The notes under the pieces are model-generated. The model saw only the letters and a program-made list of their open reading frames with translations, was not told where the DNA came from and made no database searches. Positions 86 through 57,369 of a stretch of DNA of 64,000 nt are shown one piece after another. Numbering within the stretch: the first letter of the stretch is position 1; each line of letters starts with the position of its first letter. A program made the position numbers and the translations under genes. The DNA comes from Bacteroidota bacterium (GTDB lineage Bacteria > Bacteroidota > Bacteroidia > Chitinophagales > LD1), in NCBI GenBank assembly GCA_025963485.1, contig JAOQAO010000194.1:27890-91889 (forward strand), read 5' to 3'.

Positions 86-270
86 TTGCAATGTATTTAA
101 GCCTCCTTCAGGAGGTTTGGAGGTCGAAGCAGAAGCAATAATACCGCCATTTTATACGTTAAAATACTAGAATGAAACAGCCCTGCCCTCTCAGGGGATT
201 TAGGGGCGACACAGCAGCAGTGATAGTATGCCGATAAGTTGAAATGATATTCCGGTTTTGATATAAAAGT
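86..270. repeat. Two tandem units of an unclassified structured intergenic repeat; a third copy lies at 57174..57369
   Basis: The left flank TTGCAATGTATTTAAG (86-101) is identical to 57238-57253. Hairpins CCTCC-TTCA-GGAGG (102-115) and CCCT-CTC-AGGG (186-196) are each followed by TTT and a repeat of their own 3' arm, then (T/G)CGA. An AGAAGCAAT-like box and GTTAAAAT (158-165) or GTTGAAAT (238-245) follow. Confidence 0.6.
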
Positions 271-320
271 ATTCTGTAAGTAATCCACTATCTTCACAAC
301 TATACATTACAAACAGTTCT

Positions 321-15787: not shown

Positions 15788-18700
15788 TTACCTCACCATA
15801 GTGAACCTCACCTGCCGTGAACTTTGCATTCCTTTCACCGTCAGTGTATAAACTCCGGCAGCTGCATCACGCATATCTATAGCCTGGGTATCGGATGTGA
15901 TAGCTTTCTCTTCGATCACTTCGCCCAGCATGTCGGTGATGATGTAGTTACTGTTGTGACTGTTTGATGTTTGCAGGGTGAATGAGCCGGTGTTGGGATT
16001 TGGATAGAGGTGAATGTCGCTGATTCCGGTGATGTCATGTACTCCGTCGACTCCGAACGAGAGATGTAGCGTGATAGTACTATCACAGCCATTGACCGAC
16101 GGGAGTGTATCATAATAAGTACCTGCGTTCCTAAGCGTATCTCCGCCAAAAATATAGAAGGCTGCATTGAATGCCGTAACATTGATCGTTTGGGAGGCAG
16201 ATGGCTTCACCGTCAGCGTCAGATTGATGATACTATCACATCCGCCCACCACCTGAAACGTATCCGCATAGATCCCTGAAGCAGTCAGATGTTGTATATA
16301 GAATGTGAACGTATCTCCCGCGCACATCGCATGACTGATCGGTGTGGTTGTATTTACACATGCAGCTACTGTAGTAGTCACGGTGTTTGTCACCACCGCC
16401 GGATTATTATCAAAGTAGATATACGCCGTATTATTGATCGCAGTGCCATTCGTCAGGTTGGCATTTGCCTTTACACGATACTGTATCCACCCCTCACTCA
16501 GCGGCGGATTAGTGGCACTATCCACCAGATTGATATGTGGGAATGTAAACGTCATCGCATTATGGTCCAGCTGTATCACAGCATGATGACTCGACGCGAG
16601 GTATTGGAATGATGCTGCATCTATATACTGGCTGAGAGTGTCTTTGAGCACTACGAGATAGGCAGTATCGCTTCCTGTATTCTGGAAGTGGATGGTGTAC
16701 GTGAGCCAGTCGGTAGCGCCGGGCTGTATGTTTTCAGGATACACATCCTTTAGATTTGGATCATATGAATTACGTATTTGGAAACATTGTGTTAGAGTAT
16801 TATTGGCAGGTATAAGGTCGGGTATCGTAGGTGTGATTGTAATGGTAAGACAGGCTGTAGTACCCAATATAGCAGATGGATCTGTAAGTAAAATAATGTC
16901 AAGGTCACCTTCCTCCAGAATATTGAGATCAGCCAGATTATATGTCACTATATTGCCAGAAACAGAAGATGGAGTCAATGCCCCTGACGCAGGACCTATA
17001 TAATGCAAAGCATTAGTCCACGTGGTTGTGACGGTGCCTGCAGTTCCTGCGCCGCAGTCTATATTATATCTCAAGCGTGCTACATTGCCAGCACTGATAT
17101 GGACTCCGGTTTGAAAGCCAGGGCGAAAGCGTGGTGCCGGTAAATTATAAACTCCAAAATCAATCCCTGAGCATTGAGCACCAAAACTTTCATATTTTTT
17201 GACAGAGTCAGCGGCAGATATCACTACACTGCGCATCATAGATGACGGGCACACTATTGATAGCGGTAGGGCGGTTGTATCTATATCTACTGTATAGCTG
17301 CCGTATCCTGGTGTCTTAAATGAATAACCACCTGAATTGAAAGTATAAAACTGTTGTATTACGCTACCGGCTTGCTTTAGCTGCACTTTCATATTAGTGA
17401 TCGATGCACCTGGGTGAATGCTATCAGATGTGCATGTAGCCGAGGTGTCAGAATGCACTGTGCCTGCTACATTGTAATAAAAGTCACAGCCTGAAGCGGC
17501 ATCGCACAGTGGCATGGTAGCCGGATTTATATCATACTGGATTGCTGTCAGTAGGTTGGGGAGACAATGGATATTTGTCCCGGCTATGAAAAAGGAATAT
17601 AACGGAGGACTATAAATTCGTGGCAGACATGTCAGGGATGGATTGGAATCGCAAGCAAACTCATTGAGTCGGATAGGGAGATCTGGCAAGGTAGTCAAAC
17701 GATTGGATCCGCAGCCAAGAAGGGTAAGGCTGGCAGGTAATGATGGCAGGGCAGATAAATTATTTTTGCTGCATGTCAACAGGTGAAGGTGGGGAGGCAA
17801 GGCTGGCAGCGATGCTATTGAGTTATAGTCGCATTCCAGCTCTGTGAGTGGATCTGGCAGTGCTGGCAGTGCGGATAGTAAATTCTTTTGGCACCAAAAT
17901 GTCTGAAGGGAATCGGATAATGCTGGCAGGACAGTGATATGATTGGAATGACAATACAGCGTTTGTAAAGGGACTGGCAATGCAGGTATGGTGCTGAGTG
18001 TATTGTAACTGCAATCGAGCCTATTTAAATAAGGTGGAAGAGCTGGTAATACGGAGATCGAATTAAAACTACAATCGAAGGTTCTCAGGGAATCTGGCAG
18101 TGCGGGTAAAACAGTCACATGATTGGAGGTTATACTCAAAAACGTCAATGCTGTAGGTAAAGAAGGTGTCGTAGTTAAGCTGGCATCCATGCAACTTAAG
18201 GATGTAAGGGATGCCGGGAGGGAAGGCAATGCAGTAACGGGATTGAAGCCACAGGCCAGCGTCTGCAAATGTGTCGGTAATGCCGGCAAACTAGTTAATT
18301 GATTAAACGTGCAATCCAACTCAAGCAATGAAGTACTAAGCTGTGATAAGTTGTTTAGGGAATCATGATTGCATGTAAGATATTTCAACGAGGACGGGAA
18401 AGAGGAAAGCGTGTGAAGGGGATTGTAACTGCAATCTAAAGTGATGAGTCCGGAAGACAAGGCTGGCAATGTTGTGAAATAATTGTGGCTTAGGATCAGG
18501 TATTTTACTGTAGATGATAATGTAGGAAGACCTGCGAGATGATTATTGGAGCAGTTGAGTGTTTGCAGGTGGGTGAAGTATTGTATCCCATCCAGATTTG
18601 AGATGCTATAAGACTCGCAATCTATACTCGATGCATTAATGACCAGAGGATCGGAAGCATTTAAAAAATATCCGCTCGTAGAGTTGCCGCTGATTGGGAA

Positions 18701-18826
18701 GCTGTGCCCATCCAACCAACTCGCAAAATTCTGATCTGGGATAGATACTACTTGCCCCCGCGCAGTCCCCATAGCGACACACAAACAAAGCACCAGCCAT
18801 AAGCGGTAAAGTAAAGTAGTTTTCAT
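15788..18826 (-). CDS. Secreted leucine-rich-repeat protein with a T9SS C-terminal sorting domain (paralog 1 of 3)
   Basis: 1012 aa with a signal peptide. About fifteen 20-21-aa LxxLxCxxNxLxxLPxLPxx repeats. A conserved DPN..YTIHFQNTG..IYFDNNP beta-domain, two Cys-repeat modules and the CTD IHLYPNPNTGSFTLQ...GVYTLTVKG. Confidence 0.85.
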   Translation of the reverse strand: MKTTLLYRLWLVLCLCVAMGTARGQVVSIPDQNFASWLDGHSFPISGNSTSGYFLNASDPLVINASSIDCESYSISNLDGIQYFTHLQTLNCSNNHLAGLPTLSSTVKYLILSHNYFTTLPALSSGLITLDCSYNPLHTLSSFPSSLKYLTCNHDSLNNLSQLSTSLLELDCTFNQLTSLPALPTHLQTLACGFNPVTALPSLPASLTSLSCMDASLTTTPSLPTALTFLSITSNHVTVLPALPDSLRTFDCSFNSISVLPALPPYLNRLDCSYNTLSTIPALPVPLQTLYCHSNHITVLPALSDSLQTFWCQKNLLSALPALPDPLTELECDYNSIASLPALPPHLHLLTCSKNNLSALPSLPASLTLLGCGSNRLTTLPDLPIRLNEFACDSNPSLTCLPRIYSPPLYSFFIAGTNIHCLPNLLTAIQYDINPATMPLCDAASGCDFYYNVAGTVHSDTSATCTSDSIHPGASITNMKVQLKQAGSVIQQFYTFNSGGYSFKTPGYGSYTVDIDTTALPLSIVCPSSMMRSVVISAADSVKKYESFGAQCSGIDFGVYNLPAPRFRPGFQTGVHISAGNVARLRYNIDCGAGTAGTVTTTWTNALHYIGPASGALTPSSVSGNIVTYNLADLNILEEGDLDIILLTDPSAILGTTACLTITITPTIPDLIPANNTLTQCFQIRNSYDPNLKDVYPENIQPGATDWLTYTIHFQNTGSDTAYLVVLKDTLSQYIDAASFQYLASSHHAVIQLDHNAMTFTFPHINLVDSATNPPLSEGWIQYRVKANANLTNGTAINNTAYIYFDNNPAVVTNTVTTTVAACVNTTTPISHAMCAGDTFTFYIQHLTASGIYADTFQVVGGCDSIINLTLTVKPSASQTINVTAFNAAFYIFGGDTLRNAGTYYDTLPSVNGCDSTITLHLSFGVDGVHDITGISDIHLYPNPNTGSFTLQTSNSHNSNYIITDMLGEVIEEKAITSDTQAIDMRDAAAGVYTLTVKGMQSSRQVRFTMVR

Positions 18827-18861
18827 AGCGGTAGATTATGCTCTAAATCTATCACTTTAAA

Positions 18862-18886
18862 AGCGGAACAGAAAAACTGTTTCGCT
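18862..18886 (-). terminator. Terminator-like hairpin downstream of LRR paralog 2
   Basis: AGCGGAACAG-AAAAA-CTGTTTCGCT (one G-U/mismatch position), flanked by T/A runs on both strands. Confidence 0.45.
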
Positions 18887-18925
18887 TTTTATATTAACCA
18901 GTATCAAGTATCTCGCATCCAGTAT

Positions 18926-21900
18926 CTATCTCACCACCACAAACCTCACCTGATGCGAGCTTTGTATGCCTTTAACCGTCAGTGTATAGACTCCTGCAGC
19001 TGCCTCGCTCATATCTATCGCTTGTGAGTCTGAGGTGATGGCTTTATCCTCTATCATATTGCCCAGCATATCAGTGATGATGTATTCACTATTCCTGTTG
19101 TCTGATGTTTGCAAAGTAAATACACCGCTGTTTGGATTTGGATAGAGATGGATATATTTATCCATAGGACTCTCTATGACACCAGGGCACACGGTAAATA
19201 GAAATGTTTTGTTGATCGAAGCGGTACATCCATGCCTATCAGTATAGCTATAGCTGATTACGTATATTGTATCCCTGTATGGCGATATGTCCAATGAATC
19301 CTGTGATATAGGTCCACCGGCGAATATGCCCCCAGCAGGGGCAGCATTTGTCAAAAGCCAAAATGAAGGAGGGCCAACATCGCTGACGCAATAGAATGTG
19401 TCGGATTGTGTCCAGCTAACTACCGGTGCGGGCCGTACCGCCAGCGCCAATACGATCAGGCTATCGCAGCCGTGGACATTGAGCAGCGTATCCGTATAGG
19501 TGCCTGCTGCTGTGAGCGACCTTCCATAAAATAAGTAAGATGTTCCGCTGCATATCGTATCAGCGAGTCTCGTCGTATCAGATGCGCGTACCTCCAGCAT
19601 CAGCATGATCACACTATCGCAGCCATGCATGTTTTGCAGTGTATCCATATACATACCCGACGCCGTCAGTGATTGCCCGTAGAAAGCATAGGATGCGCCG
19701 CTGCATATCGTATCCTCCAGCATCGTCATATCAGATGGCCGTACCGCGAGTATGATGCTGACGATGCTATCGCATCCATATACGCTCTGAAGTGTCGCGC
19801 TATACGGACCTGCCACCATCAGCGACTGTCCGTGGAATGCATACACATCACCATCGCAGATCGTATCATGCGTAGAAGGTGCTATATACTTCGGATGTAC
19901 GGCAAGCGTGAGGCTGATGATACTGTCACAGCCACCGGCGCGTGGCATGGTATCATTGTAGATACCCTGTGCTGTGAGCTGCTGCCCGTAGAATGTAAAG
20001 GTATCTCCGGCACAGATAGATTGACTGAGTGAAATCGTCGTGTCGCTACATGTGACGAGAGTTACATTAGTCGTAGCCGTATTGGTCACTACCGCAGGGT
20101 TATTGTCAAAGTAGATAAAGGCGGTGTTATTGATCAGAGTGCCATCGGTGAGATTTGGATTTGCCTTCACCCTGTACTGTATCCATCCTTCACTGAGGGC
20201 GGGATTAGTCGCACTGTCTACGAGGTTGATATGCGGGAAGGTAAACGTCATTACATTATGGTCGAGTTGCACCACCGCATGATGGCTCGATGCGAGGTAC
20301 TGGAAGGACGCTGCATCGACATACTGGCTGAGTGTGTCTTTCAGTACCACGAGATAGGCGGTGTCGCTGCCCGTATTCTGGAAGTGGATGGTGTAGGTGA
20401 GCCAGTCGGCGTTTGCAGGTAGAAGCCTCGATGGGTATACTTCTTTATAGTTAGGGTCCCATGAGTGTACTATAGTATAGCACTCCGTACGCGAGTCATT
20501 GGCAGGCTGTGCGTCAGCAGGAGCTACTGCGACAGTAGTAGTGATGCACAGTTGCGATCCTACTACCGCACCGGTATCTACTGTAAATATGAAGTCCAGG
20601 CTGCCCTCGTGTATAGAGTCGAGGTCGGTGACAATATAGGTCAGTGTGTGCCCGGATACAGACGTGGGAGTGAGTGCACCGGCGGCGGGCCCGCTGTACT
20701 GACCGGCATTGGTCCAGGTGGTCGTGATGATGCCTGATGTACCTGCGCCGCAGTCGGTACTGTATTGCAACAGGGAGATATTTCCCGCATTGATATGTAC
20801 GTATGAGGAGAAGGTGGGACGGAGATGCGCGGATGCTATATCTATCACGCCAAAGTCTACCGATGAGCAGCGCATACCAAAGTTCTCATACATATGGACA
20901 GAGTCAATAGCGGTGAGCGATACCGTGCGTGCACCTGATCCGGGGCATATCACAGACAACGGAAGCGAGGTAGTATCTATACTGACAGTATATGTGCTCA
21001 GCGATGGTGTTTTGAATGAATAGCCACCCGAAGTAAATGTATAGAACTGCTGTACTACTGACCCGCCTTGTTTGAGCTGTACTTTCATCCCTGTGACGGG
21101 TACACCAGGATTGAGGCTATCATTAAGGCAGTTGGGAGAGTTGTCGTAGTGGATATTACCCGAAATATTATAGTAAAACTCGCAGCCACTCGTAGCATCG
21201 CAGAGAGGATAGTTGGCCAGTATAGTGTCGCACACATGGCTGCTGAAGCGATTGGGCAGGCAGGAGATATTTGTGCCTTTGATATTAAGAAGATTGAGCT
21301 GATTTCGCGTGATACGTGGCAGGCAGGACAGGGAGGGATTATTGCTACAGGTGAGCGATATGATAGACGCAGGCAGTGAGGGCAATACGCTTATCTGATT
21401 GTCATTGCAATACAGTTCCCTCAGGAATGGGTTCGCCGACGACAGTGTAGTGATCATGTTGTGGCTGCAGTCTAGTATGTAGGCATAGGGCGTTGTCAAT
21501 GTGGTGAGGCGGTTATAGCTGCAGTTGAGGCTCGTGGCAGAGACGCCGGCCAGTGAGGTGATCATATTGTGGCTGCAGTCCAGCTGTTGCAGTGTGCCGG
21601 GCAGAGATGGCAGTGACGTGAGCTGGGCATTATTGCATATGAGATATATGAGGTTATATAGCCCGACGAGCGCAGGCAGGCTAGTGATAGGATTATGATC
21701 GCAGGACAGGTATTGCATGCCGGGGGGGACCGTAGGCAGTGTTGTGAGGTTGTTATAGCCGCATGAGAGGGAATAGAGGGGATCTGGCAGTGCCGAAAGC
21801 GTGCTGAGCCCGTTGTATCCGCACTCCAGGACTTGCAGCGAGTCAGGCAGTGTGCCGGGGAGTGAGCCCAGTGGGTTAAAGCTGCAGTAAAGCTCTGCTA

Positions 21901-22534
21901 GCTCATTGGGCATGGCGGGCAGGCTGGTGAGCTGGTTGCTGTTGCAGTTTAGTACCCGGATACTGGCCGGTAGTACTGGCACAGCAGTGAGAGAGTCATA
22001 AGAGCAGTTGAGTATGGTCAGTGTGGAGGGTAGGGACGGCAGGCTGTGAAGCGCTGGATTGTCCTGGCAGTATAGCTCTCTGAGGTCTGTCGGGAATGGT
22101 AGCATGCTGTGCAGGTTATTAAGGTTACAGCGAATGACCTGCAGGTATACGGGCCAAAATGAGGTATTGAAGGAGCTGATCTGATTAAATTCACAATTGA
22201 AAGAATCAAGGTAGTAGGGTAGATAAGGTATTGTGGTCAGGTAATTTTGGGAACAGTTGACATATTTCACATTGATAAAAGCCCCTATACCCTCCAGGTC
22301 ATGTATATTGGAATAATGGCAGTCGATCATGGTTGCATTCCGTACAGAAGGGTCCGAACCGTTCAGTTGCCAGCCACTGACGCTGTTGCCCGTGAGGGCT
22401 GGGGCATAGCCATTATTGTATAGCCAGTTGCCAAAGTTGGTATCGGGTATCGCTACATATTGCGCCCGCGCAGTACTCATAGCGATACACAAAGTACAGA
22501 TGAGCAGAATCCTGAATAGAGTGTAGTTTTTCAT
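18926..22534 (-). CDS. Secreted leucine-rich-repeat protein with a T9SS C-terminal sorting domain (paralog 2 of 3)
   Basis: 1202 aa with the same architecture as 15788..18826, but with four Cys-repeat modules and an extra segment before the CTD. Confidence 0.85.
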   Translation of the reverse strand: MKNYTLFRILLICTLCIAMSTARAQYVAIPDTNFGNWLYNNGYAPALTGNSVSGWQLNGSDPSVRNATMIDCHYSNIHDLEGIGAFINVKYVNCSQNYLTTIPYLPYYLDSFNCEFNQISSFNTSFWPVYLQVIRCNLNNLHSMLPFPTDLRELYCQDNPALHSLPSLPSTLTILNCSYDSLTAVPVLPASIRVLNCNSNQLTSLPAMPNELAELYCSFNPLGSLPGTLPDSLQVLECGYNGLSTLSALPDPLYSLSCGYNNLTTLPTVPPGMQYLSCDHNPITSLPALVGLYNLIYLICNNAQLTSLPSLPGTLQQLDCSHNMITSLAGVSATSLNCSYNRLTTLTTPYAYILDCSHNMITTLSSANPFLRELYCNDNQISVLPSLPASIISLTCSNNPSLSCLPRITRNQLNLLNIKGTNISCLPNRFSSHVCDTILANYPLCDATSGCEFYYNISGNIHYDNSPNCLNDSLNPGVPVTGMKVQLKQGGSVVQQFYTFTSGGYSFKTPSLSTYTVSIDTTSLPLSVICPGSGARTVSLTAIDSVHMYENFGMRCSSVDFGVIDIASAHLRPTFSSYVHINAGNISLLQYSTDCGAGTSGIITTTWTNAGQYSGPAAGALTPTSVSGHTLTYIVTDLDSIHEGSLDFIFTVDTGAVVGSQLCITTTVAVAPADAQPANDSRTECYTIVHSWDPNYKEVYPSRLLPANADWLTYTIHFQNTGSDTAYLVVLKDTLSQYVDAASFQYLASSHHAVVQLDHNVMTFTFPHINLVDSATNPALSEGWIQYRVKANPNLTDGTLINNTAFIYFDNNPAVVTNTATTNVTLVTCSDTTISLSQSICAGDTFTFYGQQLTAQGIYNDTMPRAGGCDSIISLTLAVHPKYIAPSTHDTICDGDVYAFHGQSLMVAGPYSATLQSVYGCDSIVSIILAVRPSDMTMLEDTICSGASYAFYGQSLTASGMYMDTLQNMHGCDSVIMLMLEVRASDTTRLADTICSGTSYLFYGRSLTAAGTYTDTLLNVHGCDSLIVLALAVRPAPVVSWTQSDTFYCVSDVGPPSFWLLTNAAPAGGIFAGGPISQDSLDISPYRDTIYVISYSYTDRHGCTASINKTFLFTVCPGVIESPMDKYIHLYPNPNSGVFTLQTSDNRNSEYIITDMLGNMIEDKAITSDSQAIDMSEAAAGVYTLTVKGIQSSHQVRFVVVR

Positions 22535-22785
22535 AATAACATATTTGTGTTTGAGTTCAAGTTGATATGTAAATGTCTTTTATAATATCGTAACAAGAAA
22601 ATATTTATTTAGTCAAAAATATGAAAGCTGACGTTCAAGCAGAATCACTTCGTCGTTGAACTCCACATTAGTATGCATTCATCTGTTACCATCATGCCGA
22701 CCCTTAGATACTTCATCGTGACACCAGGTTGAGTATCTTAAAAGGATTAAAAGGCCTTTCCGGTACTTTGAAAATCAGCGGATCA

Positions 22786-22818
22786 GGGATACAGGATCCG
22801 TGGATCTCCTGTATTCCC
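22786..22818 (-). terminator. Hairpin downstream of LRR paralog 3 (weak terminator candidate)
   Basis: GGGATACAGGA ... TCCTGTATTCCC is an imperfect inverted repeat about 26 bp beyond the stop codon. There is no strong T tract. Confidence 0.3.
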
Positions 22819-22843
22819 GACCGACCGACCGTTTTCAGTTTTT

Positions 22844-25800
22844 TTATCGCACTACTACAAACTTCACCTGCCGCGAACTTTGTGTTCCTTTCACTGTCAG
22901 TGTATAAACGCCAGCCGCTGCTTCATGCATGTCGATAGCTTGTGTATCCGATGTGATAGCTTTCTCCTCGATCATATTTCCGAGCATATCAGTGATGATG
23001 TAGCTACTGTTGTGGCTATTTGATATTTGCAGCGCGAAGGTGCCTGTGTTCGGATTTGGATACAGGTGGATGTCGTTCAGGTTGGCCACATCATTGATAC
23101 CTTCGCAGACTGTTACAACCAAAATGGCACTCGTTACATTACTGCATCCATGCACATCCGTATATGTATAGTAGATCGTATCAAGGGCGGGAAATCCTGA
23201 CAAATGTTGCATAGCGAAGTGGCCATTTAAAGTATCATTCTGAACACCCAGCCCTGAGAAAGTCCCACCAGATGGCGATCCCCCGGTCAGCGGTATCATA
23301 TAGCGGGGGAAAGCTAATTCGCACCAGATAGCATTGCTATCAACGAAAGAACGATAATCCAGATAGTGAGTTGCTACCAGCGAATCCCATGAGAAGTTCA
23401 CCACCGGCAAAGACCTCACTTGGAGATCTAGTACGATCAAACTATCGCAGCCATGCACATTGTGCATTGTATCCACATAGGTACCCGCGGCAGTGAGCGA
23501 TCGTCCGTAGAAGGTGTATGATGCACCACTACAGATCGTATCTGCCATCCTCGTAGTATCTGATGCCCTGACCTCCAGCATTAGCATGATCACACTATCG
23601 CAGCCGTGGACATTGCTCAGCGTATCCAGATACATGCCTGTTGCAGTCAACGACTGACCGTAGAATGCATAAGACGATCCACTGCATATAGTGTCTTCTA
23701 TCATCGTCATGTCCGATGGCCTTACGGCCAGCACTATACTGACCATACTGTCGCATCCATGTATGGTTTGCAGCGTAGCGTTATAAGTACCCGCAGATGT
23801 CAACGACTGACCGTGATAGGAGAGTGTGCCTCCATCACAGATCGTGTCGTACGTGGCCGGAGCTATATATTTGGGGTGTACCACGAGTGTCAGGCTGATG
23901 ATGCTATCGCATCCACCCGCACGAGGAAAGGTATCATTGTAGGTACCCTGTGCAGTCAGCGCCTGCCCGTAGAACATGAATGTATCTCCTGAGCAGATGG
24001 ACTGGCTGAGCGTACTAGTGGTGTCGCTGCAGGTGAGCAGAGTTACATTGGTCGTAGCGGTATTGGTCACGACGGCAGGGTTATTATCAAAATATATGTA
24101 CGCAGTATTATTTATCGCAGTGCCATCAGTGAGGTTGCCATTTGCCTTTACACGATATTGTATCCATCCTTCACTGAGTGGTGGGTTCGTGGCACTATCC
24201 ACGAGATTGATATGCGGGAATGTAAAAGTCATCGCATTATGGTCCAGCTGTATCACCGCATGATGGCTTGATGCCAGATATTGGAAAGAAGATGCATCAA
24301 GGTTTGAGCTAAGCGTATCACGCAGTATGACGAGATAAGCAGTGTCGTTTCCTGTATTCTGGAAATGAATGGTATAGGTCAGCCAGTCCGCAGCGCCCGG
24401 CTGTATGCGTTCCGGATACGCTTCTTTGTAGTTAGGATCCAGTGAGTTCGTGATCGTGAAACATTGTGTCAGCGTATTATTGCCCGGCACCGGATCTGAT
24501 CCCGATGATGTGACCGTGGTGGTGATGCAAGTCGTAGATCCCAGCACTGCCGATGCGTCCACGGAGAACAAAATGTCCAGGCTGTGGCTCCCGAGTGTAT
24601 TGAGGTCGGCAATATTATATGTCAGTGTATTGCCTGATACAGATGTAGGTGTGAGTGAACCCGGTGCAGGTCCGGTGTAGTGCACGCCGGAGTTGGTGTA
24701 GGTAGTGGTCACAGTGCCCGAGCTGCCGCTGCCGCAGGTGGCATGGTAGTTGAGCAGTGCGACATTGCCGGCCTCTATATGAGCAGTGAGCTGCTGTAGC
24801 GAAGCCCTGAAGGTCGGCGCTTCGATGTGCGCTACCGCAAAATCCGTCACCGAGCACTGCATCCCAAAGCTTTCATTTCTTTTGATCGAGTCGATAGCAG
24901 AAATGGTCACCGTACGCAGGTCAGACTGAGGGCAGGCCACCGTGATGGGCAAAGAAGTAGTATCGATATTCACTGTATAGGTGCCATAGGCTGGGGTCTT
25001 AAATGAATAACCACCGGAGCTAAATGTATAGAACTGCTGTATCACGCTACCGCCTTGTTTGAGCTGCACCTTTACATTGGTGATAGGCGCTCCGGGGTTG
25101 ATGCTGTCAGATGTACAGTTGGCAGATACGTCATTGTGGATGCCGCCTGCTATATTGTAGTAGAAATCACAGCCCGATGCCGGTGTACACAGCGGCATCG
25201 TACCCGGATTGAGATCGAATGTCGTCGCGGAGAAACGGCTTGGCAAACAAGTAAGGGCGGTTGACCCGAATTTGAACTCAGTGAATTGCGTCTGTGTGAT
25301 ACGCGGCAGGCAGCTGAGGTGACGGTTCAGGTATAGTGTGAAAGTGGTCAGGTAAGAAGGGATATTGACAAAAGACCTGATATCATTGTCATCACACTTC
25401 AGTAAGTACATAGTGTTTGGCAATAGCGGCATGGAGGTTATTAGATTTCCGCTGCAGATCAGACTACCCATCGCACGCGGCATCGCCGGCAGAGAGGTCA
25501 GTTGATTATAACTGCAGTTGATTGAGCTTATTGTATCGGGCAATGCCGGCAGTGTCGATAGAAGATTGGAGTGGCAGTCAAGGCGGTACATAGTGCGTGG
25601 CAGTGCAGGCATGACCGTTATTGAGTTTTGATTGCAGTCCAGGTCTTGCAGCGTAGCTGGCAGGGCCGGCAGGCTTGTCAGCTGGTTTTGGTTGCATCCC
25701 AATGTGCTCAGGTTGGGGGGTAGTGTAGGGAGTACAGTCAGAAGATTCAAATTGACTTCCATGTTTGTGATAGATGACGGGAGCGCAGGGAGGCTGGTCA

Positions 25801-26464
25801 GGCCGCAAGCCTGCATCCAGAAATCGGTGAGCCCTGCCGGCAGCACGGGTAATGTTGTGATCGGGTTGTAGTCACAATAGAGCCTGCGCAGGCTCGCCGG
25901 CAATGTGGTCAATTGGCTTATCTGGTTACCGCTGCAGGTCAGGATCTGTAGTGTACTGGGCAGTCCCGGCAGGTACGTTGTGTGATTATTACTACAGGTG
26001 TAGTCTACCAGACTGGTTGGCAGGTTTATTATATTATCATACAGGTCATTGTCATTTACATACAGGTACATTAGGTTATTGGGTAGTGAGAAGGGCAGTG
26101 ACTGCACATGTGAGTTGCTGCAGTCCAGGGTCAGCAGGTACATCGGCAGGTCATTTATATAGGGTATGTTATTGTACCGGCAGCTGATATGAGCTGTGTT
26201 GGTCAGGTACTCTATCCCTGTCAGGTCAGTGATGCCCAGATTGTCCATATTGAGGTCAGGTACATATTGCTGGCCGGCGCAGGTGGGATCTATTTGCCAT
26301 CCGCTGCCGCTGCTGCCGGTCATGCAGCTGGCATAGCCGTTATTATAGAGATAGGTGCCGAAGTTCGCATCGGGTATCGGCATATACTGCGCACGGGCTA
26401 CAGAGAGCGTACAGCAGAAACAACAAAAAAGAAGAATGCGACGAAGGGTAAGTAGTGTTTTCAT
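22844..26464 (-). CDS. Secreted leucine-rich-repeat protein with a T9SS C-terminal sorting domain (paralog 3 of 3)
   Basis: The ORF is open to 26662, but Met67 (ATG at 26464) begins a signal peptide, MKTLLTLRRILLFCCFCCTLSVARAQ, that aligns with the two paralogs. That gives 1206 aa from this start. Confidence 0.85.
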   Translation of the reverse strand: MKTLLTLRRILLFCCFCCTLSVARAQYMPIPDANFGTYLYNNGYASCMTGSSGSGWQIDPTCAGQQYVPDLNMDNLGITDLTGIEYLTNTAHISCRYNNIPYINDLPMYLLTLDCSNSHVQSLPFSLPNNLMYLYVNDNDLYDNIINLPTSLVDYTCSNNHTTYLPGLPSTLQILTCSGNQISQLTTLPASLRRLYCDYNPITTLPVLPAGLTDFWMQACGLTSLPALPSSITNMEVNLNLLTVLPTLPPNLSTLGCNQNQLTSLPALPATLQDLDCNQNSITVMPALPRTMYRLDCHSNLLSTLPALPDTISSINCSYNQLTSLPAMPRAMGSLICSGNLITSMPLLPNTMYLLKCDDNDIRSFVNIPSYLTTFTLYLNRHLSCLPRITQTQFTEFKFGSTALTCLPSRFSATTFDLNPGTMPLCTPASGCDFYYNIAGGIHNDVSANCTSDSINPGAPITNVKVQLKQGGSVIQQFYTFSSGGYSFKTPAYGTYTVNIDTTSLPITVACPQSDLRTVTISAIDSIKRNESFGMQCSVTDFAVAHIEAPTFRASLQQLTAHIEAGNVALLNYHATCGSGSSGTVTTTYTNSGVHYTGPAPGSLTPTSVSGNTLTYNIADLNTLGSHSLDILFSVDASAVLGSTTCITTTVTSSGSDPVPGNNTLTQCFTITNSLDPNYKEAYPERIQPGAADWLTYTIHFQNTGNDTAYLVILRDTLSSNLDASSFQYLASSHHAVIQLDHNAMTFTFPHINLVDSATNPPLSEGWIQYRVKANGNLTDGTAINNTAYIYFDNNPAVVTNTATTNVTLLTCSDTTSTLSQSICSGDTFMFYGQALTAQGTYNDTFPRAGGCDSIISLTLVVHPKYIAPATYDTICDGGTLSYHGQSLTSAGTYNATLQTIHGCDSMVSIVLAVRPSDMTMIEDTICSGSSYAFYGQSLTATGMYLDTLSNVHGCDSVIMLMLEVRASDTTRMADTICSGASYTFYGRSLTAAGTYVDTMHNVHGCDSLIVLDLQVRSLPVVNFSWDSLVATHYLDYRSFVDSNAIWCELAFPRYMIPLTGGSPSGGTFSGLGVQNDTLNGHFAMQHLSGFPALDTIYYTYTDVHGCSNVTSAILVVTVCEGINDVANLNDIHLYPNPNTGTFALQISNSHNSSYIITDMLGNMIEEKAITSDTQAIDMHEAAAGVYTLTVKGTQSSRQVKFVVVR

Positions 26465-26855
26465 ATTTCGTGGGGTTATTGTCTTAAATGTATAAATAAT
26501 TTTTAACAAAAAATATGTGATCCGGCTGTAAGCTATGTACAAACTCATCAAATGGCAATACAAAACGAATAAGTGATAGGGAATAGGCAATAAGTGATGG
26601 CTCGTGAGGAATAACTGCACAAATGGCCCTGATTTTTGCCCGATTCGTATCACAGAGGGCAAAAATCAAGGTGCTTTTTTGTAGCCCCGACTATGCAATA
26701 TGCTGAGTTGACGTCATCTATCAAACATCGGGCCCTTTTTTCAGCTTTAGCCTGTGAGCTACCCTGCCGGATCTTATACGAAGCTGCACTCCGGCGGAGA
26801 TAAGGCCGTCAGCAGGAGCAAAAAGTACTCTCTGGGTACGAGCCGTTTCCGGTTT

Positions 26856-32541: not shown

Positions 32542-32839
32542 GAGCGTATTTATGTAAGGATCAAATATAACAAAATGCCTGCGGAAGCCCGGCCCTGCAA
32601 TGGCTATCGCGGTCTTATCCAGGTATATCTATTGGGCGATTCGATATCGCGGGGTCATCAGTGATAAAAGTGATGAAGGAATAGGCTTTCATCATCACTG
32701 TTCTTGTACAACATTGCTAGTGTTATTGTCCCTCCAAATACGTGAATGATGTAACTATTAGGTGTAATAGTGTAACACTTTGGATTTTAATAGATTGTAC
32801 CTTTCCATCGGGAAAATTATTTCCTGTTTAAACTATACC

Positions 32840-35011
32840 ATGTTTCATATAAATAGACTTATTACTTTTCTTTTTGCCTTTTTAGCTTTCATCATTTCCG
32901 GGTTCTCGCAGGCACCTTCATTAGGCACTGCCGCTTCATTTGTATTATTTTCTACCAATGGAGCAGTGTCCAATGTCGGCATCACGCATCTCACCGGCAA
33001 TGTAGGCACCAATAATGGATCCAACACAGGTTTTGGTAATGTGAATGGTGTCATGCACAGTGCTGACGGTGCCACGGCTCAGTGCGCAGCAGACCTGCTC
33101 ACTGCCTATCATCAGCTGAATACAGCCACTGCCACGCACTTTCCCGCTCCGCTGCTGGGCAATGGGCAGACCCTGCCCGCGGGTGTGTACTCTATAGGCA
33201 GTGCTGCGACGCTGAATGGCAACCTGCTGCTGGATGCACAGAATAATGCCAGTGCAGTTTTTATCATCAAGATACAAGGTTCCTTCTCTACAGGCGCCGG
33301 GGCTAAAGTGAAACTCGTCAATGGTGCTCGCGCCTGCAATGTATACTGGAAGGTAGAAGGCCTCGTGGATATGGCCACGGGCACAAACATGAAAGGCACC
33401 CTCATCGTAAACAATGCCGCGATCAGTATGCATACCGGTGATACGCTGGAAGGCAGGGCGCTCACTACGACAGGTGCTGTGACTGTCGACGGCATTCTCG
33501 GATATACACCGATAGGCTGCGGTAGCCCTATACTGACCGGGCCATCCGCACCGGCACTCGCCTCATCAGAATGCTACGCTATATTTTCTGCCAATGGTGC
33601 TGTGACCAACTCCGGCATCACTCATGTCACCGGCGATGTAGGTACCAATGTCGGCCTGACCACAGGCTATGATACACTACTCGTCAATGGCAAGGTGCAT
33701 CCGATACCTGATGCATCTACCGCACAGTGCGCAGCAGACCTGCATACGGTCTATACCTATCTCAATACTATGCCCTACGATATCCAGCTACTATATCCTG
33801 CGCAGTTTGGCGGTGAGCTGGTACTGACACCACATACTTACCTGCTCAATGCTGCCACCGTGCTGACCGGCACGGTGTACCTCGATGCTCAGGGCAATGC
33901 CGGTGCAGTATTTGTGATCAAGATCAATGGTGCAATGTCTACGGGTACATATGCGCATGTGGTACTGATGAATAGTGCACAAGCGAAGAATGTTTTCTGG
34001 AAGATAGAAGGCGCTGTAAGCATAAACAACTATTCTACTTTCTGCGGCACGATCGTCTGCAACAATGGCGCCCTGAATGCACTTAATACAGGTGTGTCTA
34101 TAGATGGGAGGGCATTTACTACCGGTGGCCAGGTGACGACCAGTGCCATCACGGATATCATGCCTCCCGGCTGCACGTCCGGTGCGCCGAGTATCGGTAC
34201 GCAACCTAATAGCCAGTCGGCCTGCCTGGGCAGCGCGGCGAGTTTCTCCGCTGTGGCGCATGGCTCCGGCCTCACCTATCAGTGGAGGCGGGGAAATGTA
34301 AATATCACCAATGGCTCACATATCTCAGGAGCCACTGCCGCGATACTGACCATCGATCCTGTGGCGGCATCTGATGCAGCTTCCGATTATAATGTGATCG
34401 TAAGCGGTTCTTCCGGTCCCAAAGATACCTCCGCATACGTTTCTCTGATAGTACGAACTGCACCCGCTATCACCACTCCTCCTGCGAGCCAGATGGTATG
34501 TACAGGCGGTGCAGCGACTTTCTCAGTGAGCGCATCAGGCACGCAGCCTACCTATCAGTGGAGAAAAGGAAATGTAAACCTCGTCAATGCAGTAAATGTA
34601 TCCGGGGCTAATACACCTACACTGATCATAGACCCGGCGACAGCGCTGGATGCAGCGACTGACTATAATGTGGTAGTCACAGGCACATGTGCACCCGCCG
34701 CCACATCGGGCAATGCGGCACTCACTATATGTCCTACAGGTATCGCCACGATGGCCGGGAACGATCAAGCGGTGACCATATACCCAAATCCTTTTGGCGC
34801 GGTATTCACGATCAGTCTCAATGATGTATCTGCCATAGGTAAATATGAGATGAAGCTATACAATATACTCGGCGCAGAAGTGATGACCATCAGCATCACA
34901 AAGCAGCTGACCACAGTGGATGCTACTGACCTCGCAGCAGGGATCTATATATACAAGGTCAGCAGTAACAAAAAGGATATTCAGACGGGCAGGCTGGTGA
35001 CGCAGAAATAA
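32840..35011 (+). CDS. T9SS-secreted protein with two tandem ice-binding-like (DUF3494) domains and Ig-like repeats
   Basis: The signal peptide starts at the ATG at 32840. The DUF3494 pattern occurs twice (LGTAASFVLFSTNGAVSNVGITHLTGNVGTN...AVFIIKIQG...NVYWKVEG...GRALTTTGAVTVDG, and again from 33545). Two YQWR(R/K)GNVN repeats follow, then the CTD VTIYPNPFGAVFTISL...GIYIYKV. Confidence 0.85.
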   Translation: MFHINRLITFLFAFLAFIISGFSQAPSLGTAASFVLFSTNGAVSNVGITHLTGNVGTNNGSNTGFGNVNGVMHSADGATAQCAADLLTAYHQLNTATATHFPAPLLGNGQTLPAGVYSIGSAATLNGNLLLDAQNNASAVFIIKIQGSFSTGAGAKVKLVNGARACNVYWKVEGLVDMATGTNMKGTLIVNNAAISMHTGDTLEGRALTTTGAVTVDGILGYTPIGCGSPILTGPSAPALASSECYAIFSANGAVTNSGITHVTGDVGTNVGLTTGYDTLLVNGKVHPIPDASTAQCAADLHTVYTYLNTMPYDIQLLYPAQFGGELVLTPHTYLLNAATVLTGTVYLDAQGNAGAVFVIKINGAMSTGTYAHVVLMNSAQAKNVFWKIEGAVSINNYSTFCGTIVCNNGALNALNTGVSIDGRAFTTGGQVTTSAITDIMPPGCTSGAPSIGTQPNSQSACLGSAASFSAVAHGSGLTYQWRRGNVNITNGSHISGATAAILTIDPVAASDAASDYNVIVSGSSGPKDTSAYVSLIVRTAPAITTPPASQMVCTGGAATFSVSASGTQPTYQWRKGNVNLVNAVNVSGANTPTLIIDPATALDAATDYNVVVTGTCAPAATSGNAALTICPTGIATMAGNDQAVTIYPNPFGAVFTISLNDVSAIGKYEMKLYNILGAEVMTISITKQLTTVDATDLAAGIYIYKVSSNKKDIQTGRLVTQK

Positions 35012-36211: not shown

Positions 36212-38221
36212 ATGGACAAAAAAAAATCGGACGAGCTATTAATAGCTACCAGGGAGCTGGCTTTTCAATATGAAGAGAAAGCAAAACGCGCGGGTGAATT
36301 GCTCATTGCTAATGAAGAATTTCAAAAGCAGGGGGAGGCGCTGAGGAAATCCCATGAGCTTTTCCTTACACTATTTGAATATAATCATGCGGGCATTTCT
36401 GTCAGCAGGATCAGCGATGGCGTTTTGCTCAATGTGAATGATGCTTTCGTCAGGTTATTTGGTTTTGCTGACAAAGAAGATATCGTAGGCCGGGCCAGCC
36501 GTGATGTGATCCAGCACCTGGATGTCCGTCAGATGGAGCGTGCCTTTCTCGATATGAAGAAAAACGGACCGGGGAAAGAATTTGAAATGAACGTGCGGAC
36601 ACAGGGCGCCGAGCTCTGGGTCTCTATATCCCTCATGGAGGTGGAGATAGAGGATATCCCTTGTTGTTTATCGGCTTTCATAGACATCACCAGGCGCAAA
36701 AAAGTGGAAGACGAGCTAAAAGCAACAAACCAAAAGATGCTCCTCCAAAATGAGGAGAAAGAAAAGCGTACTGCCGAACGGCTCATAGCGATCAGGGAAC
36801 TCAGTTTTCAAAATGCGGAAAAGGAAAAACGGGCCGAGGAGCGTATCATAGCAAGGAGGGAGCTGACCTTTCAAAATGAAGAGAAAGAAAAACGGGCTGC
36901 TGAGCTGGTCATTGCCAATAGGGAACTTATCTTTCAAAACACAGAGAAAGAAAAACGGGCAGCGGAGCTGATCATAGCCAATAGGGAACTTGCTTTTCAA
37001 AACGAGGAAAAGGAGAAACGTGCGGCTGAGCTTATCATTGCCAACAGGGAACTCGTTTTCCAAAGCGAGGAGAAAGGGAAACGTGCAGCCGAGCTGATCA
37101 TAGCCAATAGAGAATTGATCTTTCAGAATGAAGAGAAAGAAAAGCGTGCGGCGGAATTGACCATTGCCAATCGGGAACTTGCCTTCCAAAATGAGGACAA
37201 AGAGAAACGTGCGGCTGAGCTGATCATAGCCAATAGGGAATTGATCTTTCAAAATGAGGAGAAAGAAAAGCGCGCAGATGAGCTGGTGATCGCAAACAGG
37301 GAGCTGGCATTCCAGAATGAAGAGAAAGAAAAACGCGCCGCCGAGCTTATCATTGCAAACCGGGAATTAGCCTTCCAAAGTGAAGAGAAGGGAAAACGCG
37401 CCGCCGAGCTGATCATTGCCAACAGGGAACTGGCATTCCAAAGCGAAGAAAAAGGTAAACGGGCGAATGAACTGATCATCGCCAATAGGGAGCTCAGCTA
37501 CCAAAATGAAGAGAAGGAAAAGCGCGCACATGAGCTGATCATCGCCAATGTAGAGCTGGAGCAATTTGCCTATGTGGCCTCGCATGACCTGCAGGAGCCA
37601 CTGCGTACGGTTTCCAACTATATGAAAGTTTTTGAGGAAGATTACCTGAATATATTTGACGATAATGCGCGCAAATACCTCAAAGCGGTAAATGAATCAG
37701 TAGAAAGGATGAGCCTGCTTATCAAATCATTGTTGGATTTTTCGCGGTTGGGCAGCAACAAGCAAGTGATCTCTGTGGACTGCGGCCATATGGTCTCCAA
37801 TGTGATAGCAGATCTCAATAAGATGATAAAAACATCAGGAGCGGTCATCGAGATAGGAGAATTGCCTATACTGAATGTCTACAAAACGCAGATCCGGCAG
37901 GTGTTCCAGAATCTTATTACCAATGCGATCAAATTTCAGAAGGAGGGGGTCCAGCCCAGGATACAGATACTGGCAGAGCAAGCGGATGGGGCATGGAAAT
38001 TCTCCGTCAGCGACAATGGCATTGGGATATCTTCCGATCATTTCGAAAAAGTCTTTGATATTTTCCAGCGTTTGCGTACTGACCGGACGTATGAGGGAAA
38101 CGGTATCGGACTTGCCAACTGTAAAAAGATAATACAACTGCATCAGGGAGAGATATGGATCGAGTCCGTACTCGGCCATGGGACTACTTTTTATTTCACC
38201 ATATCAAATATGACACCATGA
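36212..38221 (+). CDS. PAS sensor histidine kinase with a long tandem-repeat helical linker
   Basis: 669 aa with one PAS domain and 13 tandem 21-aa repeats. The H-box is FAYVASHDLQEPLR. The N box is QNLITNAIKF, with DNGIGI and GNGIGLAN G boxes. Confidence 0.9.
   Translation: MDKKKSDELLIATRELAFQYEEKAKRAGELLIANEEFQKQGEALRKSHELFLTLFEYNHAGISVSRISDGVLLNVNDAFVRLFGFADKEDIVGRASRDVIQHLDVRQMERAFLDMKKNGPGKEFEMNVRTQGAELWVSISLMEVEIEDIPCCLSAFIDITRRKKVEDELKATNQKMLLQNEEKEKRTAERLIAIRELSFQNAEKEKRAEERIIARRELTFQNEEKEKRAAELVIANRELIFQNTEKEKRAAELIIANRELAFQNEEKEKRAAELIIANRELVFQSEEKGKRAAELIIANRELIFQNEEKEKRAAELTIANRELAFQNEDKEKRAAELIIANRELIFQNEEKEKRADELVIANRELAFQNEEKEKRAAELIIANRELAFQSEEKGKRAAELIIANRELAFQSEEKGKRANELIIANRELSYQNEEKEKRAHELIIANVELEQFAYVASHDLQEPLRTVSNYMKVFEEDYLNIFDDNARKYLKAVNESVERMSLLIKSLLDFSRLGSNKQVISVDCGHMVSNVIADLNKMIKTSGAVIEIGELPILNVYKTQIRQVFQNLITNAIKFQKEGVQPRIQILAEQADGAWKFSVSDNGIGISSDHFEKVFDIFQRLRTDRTYEGNGIGLANCKKIIQLHQGEIWIESVLGHGTTFYFTISNMTP
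36739..37550 (+). repeat. Coding tandem repeat: about 13 units of 63 bp (21 aa, consensus AELIIANRELAFQNEEKEKRA)
   Basis: The string GAGCTGATCATAGCCAATAG recurs near 36965, 37091 and 37217, each 126 bp (2 x 63) apart. In the translation I count 13 consecutive xFQ(N/S)xEKxKR units. One and a half further units lie at the N-terminus (about 36227-36331). Confidence 0.9.
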
Positions 38222-43649: not shown

Positions 43650-43927
43650 GGAGCGCTCCAAAAGGGGACCTGGAGTAGGGAATTTCTAAAGTTTTAAAAT
43701 GACGAACTCAAAACAGGCGCAAAAGTAATGCCTTTTTTTTAATTATTTGACAATCAGATTTATATAGATTGTTTTACCGGTACAAAACGTTGATTGTGTA
43801 GTAAATAATGGAGGGATTCATCCTTAAAACAGCACAGACATATCTGTATTTTTTTACAACGAGGATATTCATTTTGAACATATTATCGATGTGACGGAGG
43901 ATATACGGATCCATCCCTCGCTAAAGC

Positions 43928-43950
43928 AAAAAAGCCGCACAAAGTGCGGC
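43928..43950 (-). terminator. Rho-independent terminator of fibre gene F2
   Basis: On the minus strand: GCCGCAC-TTT-GTGCGGC followed by TTTTTT, about 25 bp after the stop. Confidence 0.75.
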
Positions 43951-43975
43951 TTCCAATATCAGTTTATCAATTGTA

Positions 43976-46900: not shown

Positions 46901-47119
46901 CGCATTGGCTGCCGATGCTCCATCGTCTGTGATGCGGAAGATCGTGACATTGGCAGGTATAGTGATGGCAGCTCCTGCTGATCCGCTTTGCGGGGTGGAG
47001 GCGACTGCACCGTTGACCGTCAGTTTGGCGCCGGGGCTGTTGGTACCGACACCTACGTTTTGGGCCTGAAGCGCACTAAAAGAAAAGGCGATGCACAGAA
47101 CCGTAATTAATTTTTTCAT
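43976..47119 (-). CDS. Tail-fibre-like secreted protein F2 (C-terminal module type B)
   Basis: 1047 aa. It starts MKKLITVLCIAFSFSALQAQ|NVGVGTNSPGAKL and has repeated GNVGIG(T/N)xxPxxKLD(V/I) motifs. The C-terminus is ...GNCNGIHLMSVSKDGF...KPMWWDGNKIRFD, shared with F4. Confidence 0.8.
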   Translation of the reverse strand: MKKLITVLCIAFSFSALQAQNVGVGTNSPGAKLTVNGAVASTPQSGSAGAAITIPANVTIFRITDDGASAANAVSATGPVDGQFLTIYNTDAQPATFAGQTIAAASGVMTFQYINTGWRMVSDNQAGGNNFIKNTTSTQASSDFNVSSTGTVGTTLTVGTSTTSPTLQGSTAASGTLTLKATSSTTKPTAGVLLTDNIASTSTTTGTAVITGGEGISGNLNVGGTETVTGLVTQNGGLTETGTASINTSGAAVSSIGVGGTGAVNLGNTTGGVSVKSLTTAGIVTNTAAGLLGTTATLPVANGGTGAGTFTQGSVVFAGASGNYAQNNANFFWDNTNSRLGINTAAAPVQALDVNGVGLFRNGNSNVTFTNSQLALGYNGTNTYQHAIKSRHNSAAQAGNAIDFFVWNQGTDATGTIGTKQVMTLDGNGNVGIGNTSPSFKLDVLEGTSAATTATLRRGLQGSDASMVTTYGAPYIKIGGSEYKTNSIQSLGFGYNVGSIQPAEIGFITTNIAGYTLGDIVFAQRNGTTNVAPSEVVRITAAGNVGIGSPGPGQKLTVVDATNANQYSGTVSVYANNLTQGIGIGYMGIQALGSNTNQDLAINSRGTGHVYLQTTGTTGNVGIGTTTPQQKLDIIGNVSTNGAGGYSIYSWSPTDVNWRIGMQSTNAAVGFSRNIATSHVEYATFANGAGQGFAVGDVISGLSAFEVTSSGSGYAAYFRGSVGMGANPVGNDRLYANLPATTALGSNYTYNASYAGLAGYNPASLRGSYQNAYQFGVVGQKDLNNDGAYYYDLRSGGVMGSSWYTGSGNYLMGWGALGYYYSGFSYYGLYYTSSGTGSGFLPTGVVSGVGAGGVGEFIGSWTKGGVVGHIASGELAAGYNVGNVYTSGHNIELVSNGGQKVAAYSNTSTEATVSKAGKGQLSNGKATVSFDAKFAALLTAEESPIVTITPIGNCNGIHLMSVSKDGFEAEENNNGNSSVAFTYIVMGKRVDAASASTPADFTNQSFDDNLKEAMFNESNKEHNAKPMWWDGNKIRFDMPPLKDSGKK

Positions 47120-47298
47120 GGGGTTGCTCCGAATGACCTGAAGCGCAGGTGTTCTGGGGTTTTGAAAATAGCATTATAAAAAGCCGCGTAATTTATGACC
47201 TTTTTCGCCCCGATTGAGGCCTGGGAAGATATAATTTCATTCACCGACACTATTTCCTGTTTGTATGAGTCCAAATACGCGGATGCGCGTTAAATAGA

Positions 47299-47324
47299 CA
47301 AAAAGGGCTGCGAGATACAGCCCT
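47299..47324 (-). terminator. Rho-independent terminator of fibre gene F3
   Basis: On the minus strand: AGGGCTG-TATCTCG-CAGCCCT followed by TTTTTG. Confidence 0.75.
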
Positions 47325-47360
47325 TTTAATTCGTTCGTGAAGTATGTATTTAGCCGCGTA

Positions 47361-50384: not shown

Positions 50385-50543
50385 CGTAGGGGTTTACTTG
50401 GGTGTTAGTCTAAATTAATAACTATTCGCTACAAAGTCAATACCTGCTTTAAAAATATTGCTGGTAATCAATAAAATGATGGCGGGCACAGGCGACTCGT
50501 TGTATAAGATAATACAATTGGCACCGACTCTCCGCTGAGGACA

Positions 50544-50569: not shown

Positions 50570-50593
50570 CCTGTATTAATATAAACTCCGTCT

Positions 50594-57173: not shown

Positions 57174-57369
57174 CGTCAGTTTGAAACCCAATGTCAGTGA
57201 CTTAGGCTGTTACACTATGCCATTTGCAGTAAACCCATTGCAATGTATTTAAGTCCCTATAGGGATTTAGGGCGAGGTAGAAGCAATGAAAGCTAAATTT
57301 TAGATGTTGAAATCTCGATAGGAGCGACCTGTTTTTCTTAAATTAATGACATTGGGTCTCAAACCGACG
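57174..57369. repeat. Third copy of the structured repeat, enclosed by 23-bp terminal inverted repeats
   Basis: CGTCAGTTTGAAACCCAATGTCA (57174-57196) and TGACATTGGGTCTCAAACCGACG (57347-57369) are complementary at 21 of 23 positions. The core at 57238-57313 matches the units at 86-270. Confidence 0.6.

Follow-up and report, generated by a model that had tools for sequence, protein, structure and literature searches.

Three intergenic copies of a hairpin repeat of about 76–80 nt are present in the genome of an uncultured member of the Bacteroidetes, and the repeat is most likely one of the ordinary small intergenic repeats of bacteria. All three copies lie on the same strand (+) of the 64-kb stretch of DNA that was analysed, hereafter called the window. 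The element has spread to two or more loci separated by 57 kb, one of which holds a tandem duplication. The units are as follows.

86..165, + strand: unit u1, with the 16-mer TTGCAATGTATTTAAG, a hairpin, GGAGG, TCGA, the AGAAGCAAT box and GTTAAAAT; homologous over its full length to u3
172..245 (start approximate), + strand: unit u2, a diverged copy in tandem with u1, 6 nt further on
57238..57313, + strand: unit u3, with the 16-mer TTGCAATGTATTTAAG, a hairpin, AGGG, GCGA, AGAAGCAAT and GTTGAAAT

Family members and their homology

The homology between u1 and u3 extends from end to end over about 78 nt and was recovered with an E value of 3.3e-4 when u1 alone was used as the nhmmer query against the 64-kb window. 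The two units have in common the perfect 16-mer TTGCAATGTATTTAAG and a perfect AGAAGCAAT box, together with CGA, ATTTTA and GTTRAAAT. In the alignment, these perfect blocks of 16/16 and 9/9 stand inside copies that are otherwise about 60–70% alike. MAFFT alignment of the units places the u3 stem wrongly.

The second unit follows u1 head-to-tail on the same strand and retains the hairpin, ATTT-AGGGG, GCGA, AGCAGCAGT and GTTGAAAT; it does not contain the 16-mer. Single-sequence searches recovered u2 weakly (E=1.2–3.2), and a profile of u1 and u3 recovered it with an E value of 0.0097. Its best non-self matches are exactly the homologous portions of u1 and u3. Judged by its sequence, u2 is probably a marginal, diverged member of the family, and its position next to u1 adds weight to this assignment. 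No fourth unit was found in the 64-kb window. A candidate at 57350–57398, which resembles the 3′ half of u2, had no statistical support and was dropped.

The coordinates and strings given in an earlier note on this DNA proved correct when the window was read again. The note had also stated that both tandem units and the third copy carry an identical 16-nt flank, which was not the case: with up to 3 mismatches allowed, TTGCAATGTATTTAAG occurs only at 86 and 57238 and is missing from u2. The intergenic repeat family that had been proposed is genuine, but it is smaller and less regular than claimed, with u2 a marginal member that lacks the 16-mer.

Conserved blocks and two arm states

In all three units, the 3′ arm of a short hairpin is repeated after TTT, as had been noticed before. 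The arms of u1 are CCTCC (102–106) and GGAGG (111–115), with a second GGAGG at 119–123; those of u2 are CCCT (186–189) and AGGG(G) (193–197), with a second AGGGG at 202–206; and those of u3 are TCCC and GGGA, within 57254–57265, with a second AGGG at 57269–57272. This repeated segment is referred to below as the third segment or third arm. The motif (T/G)CGA comes next (124–127 in u1, 206–209 in u2 and 57272–57275 in u3), followed by the box, which reads AGAAGCAAT, AGCAGCAGT and AGAAGCAAT and starts at 131, 213 and 57279, respectively. The last block is GTTAAAAT at 158 in u1 and GTTGAAAT at 238 in u2 and 57306 in u3. Its distance from the hairpin start was measured as 56, 52 and 52 nt in u1, u2 and u3, in agreement with the near-constant spacing of 52–56 nt reported earlier.

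The hairpin sequence had been said to differ in every copy. Pairing is indeed kept despite sequence change, but u2 and u3 have the same arms (CCCT/AGGG). The two units have CCCT..GGGATTTAGGG(G)CGA in common by descent, so that the family contains two arm states and only one independent three-way change is seen, namely that of u1 (CCTCC/GGAGG/GGAGG).

The layout in which an arm is followed by its complement and, after a spacer, by the complement again (X′-loop-X-spacer-X) was found 13 times in the window with 5-nt arms, compared with about 4 (maximum 11) in shuffled sequences; the layout alone is therefore not rare. That it recurs at one aligned position, with an unchanged TTT spacer and in both arm states, would be beyond chance at roughly 1e-3 to 1e-4, a figure that is our own estimate rather than the outcome of a formal test and that allows for the purine constraint on the lower stem. 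The segments on either side of TTT can be read equally well as a mirror repeat, GGAGG-TTT-GGAGG in u1, GGGGA-TTT-AGGGG in u2 and GGGA-TTT-AGGG in u3.

Several other identities for these blocks were considered and rejected. A G-quadruplex or H-DNA formed by the purine mirror repeat was set aside because the arms are too short and four G-runs are present in u1 only. Each unit contains a short ORF with an ATG start (16, 17 and 21 aa), but the peptides are unconserved and the frames diverge after the hairpin. Sigma-54 and Bacteroidetes −33/−7 promoter motifs were sought by eye and had inconsistent spacing across the copies. A tRNA-like identity was likewise rejected.

A predicted long hairpin on the + strand may account for the third segment

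Folding predicted the following hairpins.

96..121, + strand: long hairpin of u1, 96–106 paired with 111–121, 11 bp including 3 G·U, with a UUCA loop
180..207, + strand: two-part hairpin of u2, upper stem 186–189/194–197 and lower stem 180–184/203–207, with an AUUU bulge
57248..57271, + strand: long hairpin of u3, 57248–57257 paired with 57262–57271, 10 bp including 3 G·U, with a UAUA loop

An alternative 5-bp hairpin (181–185/192–196) can be formed in u2. Each copy contains 2–3 G·U pairs, which become C·A mismatches on the − strand, where 3 pairs of the u1 stem would break. The local fold of the + strand is 3–6 kcal/mol more stable than that of the − strand; the hairpin energies are −13.6 (+) versus −7.6 (−) kcal/mol for u1, −11.7 versus −8.9 kcal/mol for u2 and −9.8 versus −6.1 kcal/mol for u3.

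In u1 and u3, the helix extends below the short hairpin described previously. There AAG is paired with UUU, after which the 16-mer contributes its UUU, paired through A-U and G·U with the first three purines of the third arm (these are GGA in u1 and AGG in u3). The third arm of u1 (119–123) provides in this manner the last 3 pairs of the 11-bp stem. In u2 the 16-mer is replaced, and a second CCCU pairs with the third segment through G-C pairs. The lower stems of u1 and u3 differ by A-U to G·U changes that preserve pairing, and a compensatory change between u1 and u2/u3 maintains the pairing of the hairpin. The core of the element, as folded, is thus a + strand hairpin of 10–11 bp whose lower stem is predicted to join the third arm to the 3′ half of the conserved 16-mer. 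The blocks CGA, AGAAGCAAT and GTTRAAAT are conserved and unpaired.

The earlier note had considered the coordinated change of three segments to be the pattern expected of mutually exclusive RNA pairings, that is, a switch, or of an inverted-plus-direct repeat site recognized by a protein. The data do not sustain either proposal. Both appeal to what is a single independent event. For the switch, the folding model offers a simpler reading, in which the third segment would be the 3′ strand of one long + strand hairpin; for the protein site, sequence-specific recognition is unlikely since the motif differs between copies in one genome.

The structure nevertheless bears on a broader explanation, according to which the units are a family of structured + strand RNAs of small size, whether free-standing sRNAs or cis elements of untranslated regions, with a 5′ arm that takes part in two exclusive hairpins. 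The strand-specific structure with its G·U pairs and lower folding energy is what such a family would show, and the fold z-scores of u1 and u3 point the same way (about −2.0 on the + strand versus −1.4 and −0.8 on the − strand), whereas the fold of u2 is no better than that of shuffled sequence (z +0.9). With the first 3′ arm blocked, the 5′ arm could instead form a helix with the third segment (−9.2, −7.4 and −6.7 kcal/mol for u1, u2 and u3), but the minimum-energy fold already pairs the third segment with the UUU of the 16-mer or, in u2, with the second CCCU. All three segments have changed together between u1 and u2/u3, although this is the one event mentioned above. The conserved unpaired blocks could serve as seed or binding regions, and a weak hairpin (a 5-bp stem when folded) followed by UUUUUCUU can be read in the sequence after u3. 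Against this, a consensus scan called no promoter-like or terminator-like site at the units, the genome's own terminators are canonical and unlike the unit hairpins, and the element is missing from relatives and from every collection scanned. The position of u3 between convergent genes also means that this unit cannot be a 5′ leader. We therefore regard a family of small structured RNAs of this kind as unlikely, if still the most credible of the alternatives to a mobile-type repeat; a switch is possible, and nothing found here favours or requires one.

Genomic setting and distribution

The tandem units u1 and u2 are located upstream of a cytochrome P460 family gene and u3 between two convergent genes of unassigned function. 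Given that the settings differ, the family has no common gene association. The P460 protein and a 186-aa protein match the NCBI MAG locus tags JWO03_2905 and JWO03_2948, and the reads SRR13312974 carry the same genes as the window. The window is ordinary chromosome of an uncultured member of the Bacteroidetes, and its genes encode T9SS cargo, an ice-binding protein, PAS histidine kinases and response regulators. A Pfam scan of the approximately 40 window proteins revealed no transposase, integrase or reverse transcriptase, and no Y1, HUH, Rep or RAYT gene was found among them. Homology between the flanks of the u1/u2 locus and those of the u3 locus was not significant beyond the unit itself.

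SRR13312974 is the sole read set with the organism; its Logan contigs are the one further assembly available for it, and two of them break at the 5′ arm of u3. Contig L038 ends at window position 57251 and contig L015 starts at 57258, leaving AGTCCC (57252–57257, u3 5′ arm) between them. The break could reflect a coverage gap or heterogeneity at the variable arm, and it hints weakly at a repeat or a variable site. The Logan contig bearing the adjacent 347-aa gene breaks off at window position 878.

Relatives with a P460 protein 66–69% identical to that of the window, which include Chitinophagales, keep the gene order P460, 349-aa gene and M42 peptidase gene. In these relatives 59 bp separate a 247-aa gene from the P460 gene, compared with more than 320 bp, including u1 and u2, in the window. 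No copy of the element was detected at the relatives' loci by nhmmer or by fuzzy patterns. No homologue of the upstream 247-aa gene from the window's MAG was present among the search matches, which places the element at an insertion combined with a break in gene order. On this comparison, u1 and u2 appear to be inserted and lineage-specific with respect to relatives that are themselves distant (P460 protein only 66–69% identical). Homologues of the u3-adjacent gene were uninformative (42–44% identical, in a different context).

Two adjacent small ORFs (93 and 94 aa) lie nearby at 1957–2519, with the 347-aa gene on one side and the M42 peptidase gene on the other, and are called as genes of 87 and 94 aa in the Logan contig L045. 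They are missing from the relatives' interval and thus represent a small insertion of their own, possibly a toxin–antitoxin pair.

Pattern searches beyond these relatives gave chance or unrelated matches. The pattern of 16-mer, TTT and CGA had 14 matches in 185,579 species (one genome each, the window's own being absent), all of them unrelated and most of them belonging to one conserved Clostridia coding stretch. The pattern of box and GTTRAAAT had 22 matches in JGI metagenomes that do not include the window's MAG, all attributable to chance. A scan of viral contigs, again a collection without the window's MAG, gave 0 matches, and blastn against plasmids and phages gave no match. These results suggest that the family is young or narrow.

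A scan of the whole window against Rfam at gathering thresholds returned no match. The best sub-threshold scores, PYLIS_5 with 26 bits (60 needed) and CRISPR-DR35 with 15 bits (35 needed), were at chance level, as were the best scores around u3 (sn2429, 15 bits; RAGATH-35, 14 bits). The empty Rfam scan and the lack of any match in plasmids, phages and viral contigs agree with the earlier note, which could match the repeat to no known RNA family or mobile-element end.

Termini and inverted repeats around the units

The following features were identified at the ends of the units and in their flanks.

154..164, − strand: 3′ end of u1, TTTTAACGTAT, matching the 5′ 11-mer TTGCAATGTAT at 8/11 positions
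302..312, − strand: solo inverted copy of the 5′ 11-mer, TTGTAATGTAT, with 1 mismatch and no unit attached
57174..57204, + strand: left arm of a 31-nt inverted repeat around u3; family membership is not implied
57339..57369, − strand: right arm of the same inverted repeat enclosing u3

The 3′ ends of u2 (234–244) and u3 match the inverted 5′ 11-mer at 8/11 and 7/11 positions, respectively, and the centroid fold of u1 pairs both ends of the unit. The 11-nt inverted ends may therefore be a weak terminal inverted repeat or a closing stem; allowing for freedom of register, we estimate a p of about 0.01–0.03 for the inverted termini. Inspection of the flanks for a target-site duplication was negative, in that TA/TA can be drawn at u1 only and the flanks of u2 and u3 differ.

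The solo copy TTGTAATGTAT lies 9 nt 5′ of the first possible P460 start codon, and a 12-nt inverted repeat (85–96/302–313) brackets u1 and u2 together upstream of the P460 gene. Also noticed was an inverted repeat that is perfect over 11 nt, TTCCGGTTTTG and CAAAACCGGAA at 250–260 and 397–407; it brackets the P460 start codon and spans the sequence from just past u2 to the early P460 coding region. By our estimate, about 0.02 repeats of this type are expected by chance in 420 nt, and the pair might form a long-range 5′ UTR pairing.

The arms of the 31-nt inverted repeat around u3 are 84% complementary and separated by 134 nt, and their core GTTTGARACCCAATGTCA occurs in the window at these two places only. 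The fold z-scores of the repeat are −4.2 and −4.8, with 23 contiguous pairs in the − strand RNA. Candidate identities are a second type of repeat, an inverton-like structure and a hairpin that took in u3. With respect to an invertible-promoter pattern, the repeat sits between convergent gene ends, and the two Logan contigs show the MAG orientation only. Both arms begin with CGTC, and the spacer minus u3 is about 58 nt, which is REPIN-like. No similar inverted repeat was found around u1 and u2.

A possible lineage-specific repeat of the mobile type

Taking the dispersal, the tandem duplication and the narrow distribution together, we tentatively favour the reading that the element is a small, non-coding, lineage-specific intergenic repeat of the MITE, REP or BOX kind, and consider it plausible. 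Under this reading, copies would arise by recombination or through the action of a transposase or recombinase whose gene lies at another place in the genome. The enzyme would read the conserved flank and the shape of the hairpin (in single-stranded DNA or RNA) rather than the sequence of the stem, and recognition by shape would leave the stem free to change while pairing holds. When transcribed within neighbouring + strand mRNAs, the units might act as processing or stability hairpins, as REP and BOX elements do, and not as a dedicated switch.

Several observations count against a mobile-type repeat. There are three copies only in the 64 kb searched; no target-site duplication is evident and the inverted termini are weak; the approximately 40 window proteins scanned include no transposase, integrase or reverse transcriptase; the head-to-tail tandem is atypical of REP dimers; and the 16/16 and 9/9 blocks beside a compensating stem are more like the product of functional selection than of neutral decay.

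Comparison with described systems shows resemblance in part to each. Like MITEs such as the Correia elements, RUP and Nezha, the element is shorter than 300 bp, non-coding, intergenic, multi-copy and dispersed, with a site that is empty in relatives, weak terminal inverted similarity and a stable hairpin when transcribed. Unlike MITEs, its inverted termini match at only 7–8/11 positions, no target-site duplication accompanies it, it has no known cognate transposase, and three copies were seen in 64 kb. With the BOX elements of Streptococcus pneumoniae (boxA-boxB(n)-boxC) it shares a modular organization, a tandem sub-unit, an intergenic location and a predicted stable RNA structure; it differs in showing no sequence similarity to them, in belonging to another phylum and in having one recognized module type.

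REP sequences are palindromes of 20–40 nt, one end of which carries an unpaired tag (GTAG or CGTC), and REP dimers are mostly arranged head-to-head (PMC3733652). The element resembles the REP/REPIN and RAYT systems in its unpaired 5′ flank, in a stem-loop that varies while pairing is kept, in its strand-asymmetric G·T/G·U pairs and in its extragenic, clustered copies. It departs from them in that the bases before the stem are GTAT (u1 and u3) or ACAG (u2) and not a GTAG or CGTC tag, in being about 80 nt long with an extended 3′ half that is not palindromic, in its head-to-tail arrangement where head-to-head or tail-to-tail dimers would predominate, and in that no RAYT is encoded among the approximately 40 window proteins. 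The stem-loop and iteron origins of Rep/HUH replicons (rolling-circle plasmids and CRESS-DNA viruses) also have a hairpin beside a direct copy of an arm; however, the loop of the element is 4 nt long and has no nick-site motif, no Rep gene is present, and the motif varies within the genome.

Four further classes were examined and rejected. For an integron attC site, GTTGAAA/GTTAAAA has A instead of Y at position 7 of the core R′ (GTTRRRY), no RYYYAAC (R″) is present at the 5′ end of the units, and no integrase was found in the window. For an IS200/IS605 end or a TnpB/IscB guide RNA, the window contains no tnpA, tnpB or iscB gene and no Rfam (HEARO/omega-RNA) match. A type III toxin–antitoxin RNA (toxI-like) was discarded since the gene downstream of u1/u2 encodes cytochrome P460 and not a toxN-type protein, and u3 has no downstream gene. 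An intrinsic terminator was discarded since the terminator scan was negative and the full stem is followed by GGUCGA or GCGAGG and not by a U-tract.

A more specific version of the mobile-element reading is that the hairpin and the direct copy of its arm form an iteron-like site for an HUH/Y1 enzyme (RAYT or an IS200/IS605 TnpA-like protein) or a Rep-like protein. An unpaired conserved 5′ flank followed by a structure-conserved hairpin recalls the tag and stem-loop of REP sequences (PMC3733652), the GTAT directly before the stem is one base off GTAG, and the strand asymmetry would suit recognition of one strand. The tag itself is absent, however, and neither the unit length nor the orientation of the tandem copies is that of REP sequences; the scanned window proteins include no Y1, HUH or Rep protein, and an iteron read by sequence would demand separate proteins for GGAGG and AGGG in one genome. 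We consider an HUH/Y1 or Rep-like site doubtful.

The units might also be neutral leftovers of duplication or weak terminators, with a triple arm produced by slippage or template switching in a quasi-palindrome and not by selection. Template switching in quasi-palindromes can alter both arms in one event. The AAG-stem-TTT layout is like that of a miniature bidirectional terminator, and the X′-loop-X-spacer-X layout is common in the window, as shown by the comparison with shuffles. On the other side, the unit hairpins were not called as terminators in the scan, the perfect 16- and 9-nt blocks in copies about 60–70% alike argue for constraint, and the u1/u2 and u3 loci have nothing in common outside the unit, which speaks against segmental duplication. 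An origin of this neutral kind is improbable in our judgement.

Finally, it is very improbable that the two arms and the purine segment form a variable but matched specificity module, a three-segment code that would choose a pairing partner in + strand RNA or single-stranded DNA, whether within the unit as a two-state switch in cis or, in trans, on another copy or a target; if it were so, Chitinophagales-like Bacteroidetes would possess a programmable structured element of a new class. Many more copies in which the arms and the third segment change together would mean a structural or guide-like code undescribed for bacterial repeats, and with three copies and one independent change such a code cannot be shown. 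If the mobile-type repeat that we favour is the true reading, the element is a further lineage-specific family of intergenic repeats from a group that has been poorly sampled, and such a family would be useful chiefly for annotation and as a marker of genome rearrangement.

Other repeats and genes in the window

Repeats of other kinds were observed within coding sequences of the window. A gene for a PAS/HisKA/HATPase sensor kinase (36212–38221) contains 11–12 tandem repeats of 63 nt (21 codons) at 36681–37610. Five paralogous proteins of about 840–1050 aa, with repeated DNA segments in common and no Pfam match, are encoded at 40710–56391, and an array of three proteins with LRR, DUF7619 and a T9SS tail is encoded at 15788–26662. 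After the large paralogue arrays there is a gene for a collagen-repeat protein (60042–63065). The ice-binding-like protein encoded at 32780–35011 has Ig domains and a T9SS sorting tail, and its presence suggests a cold-environment origin.
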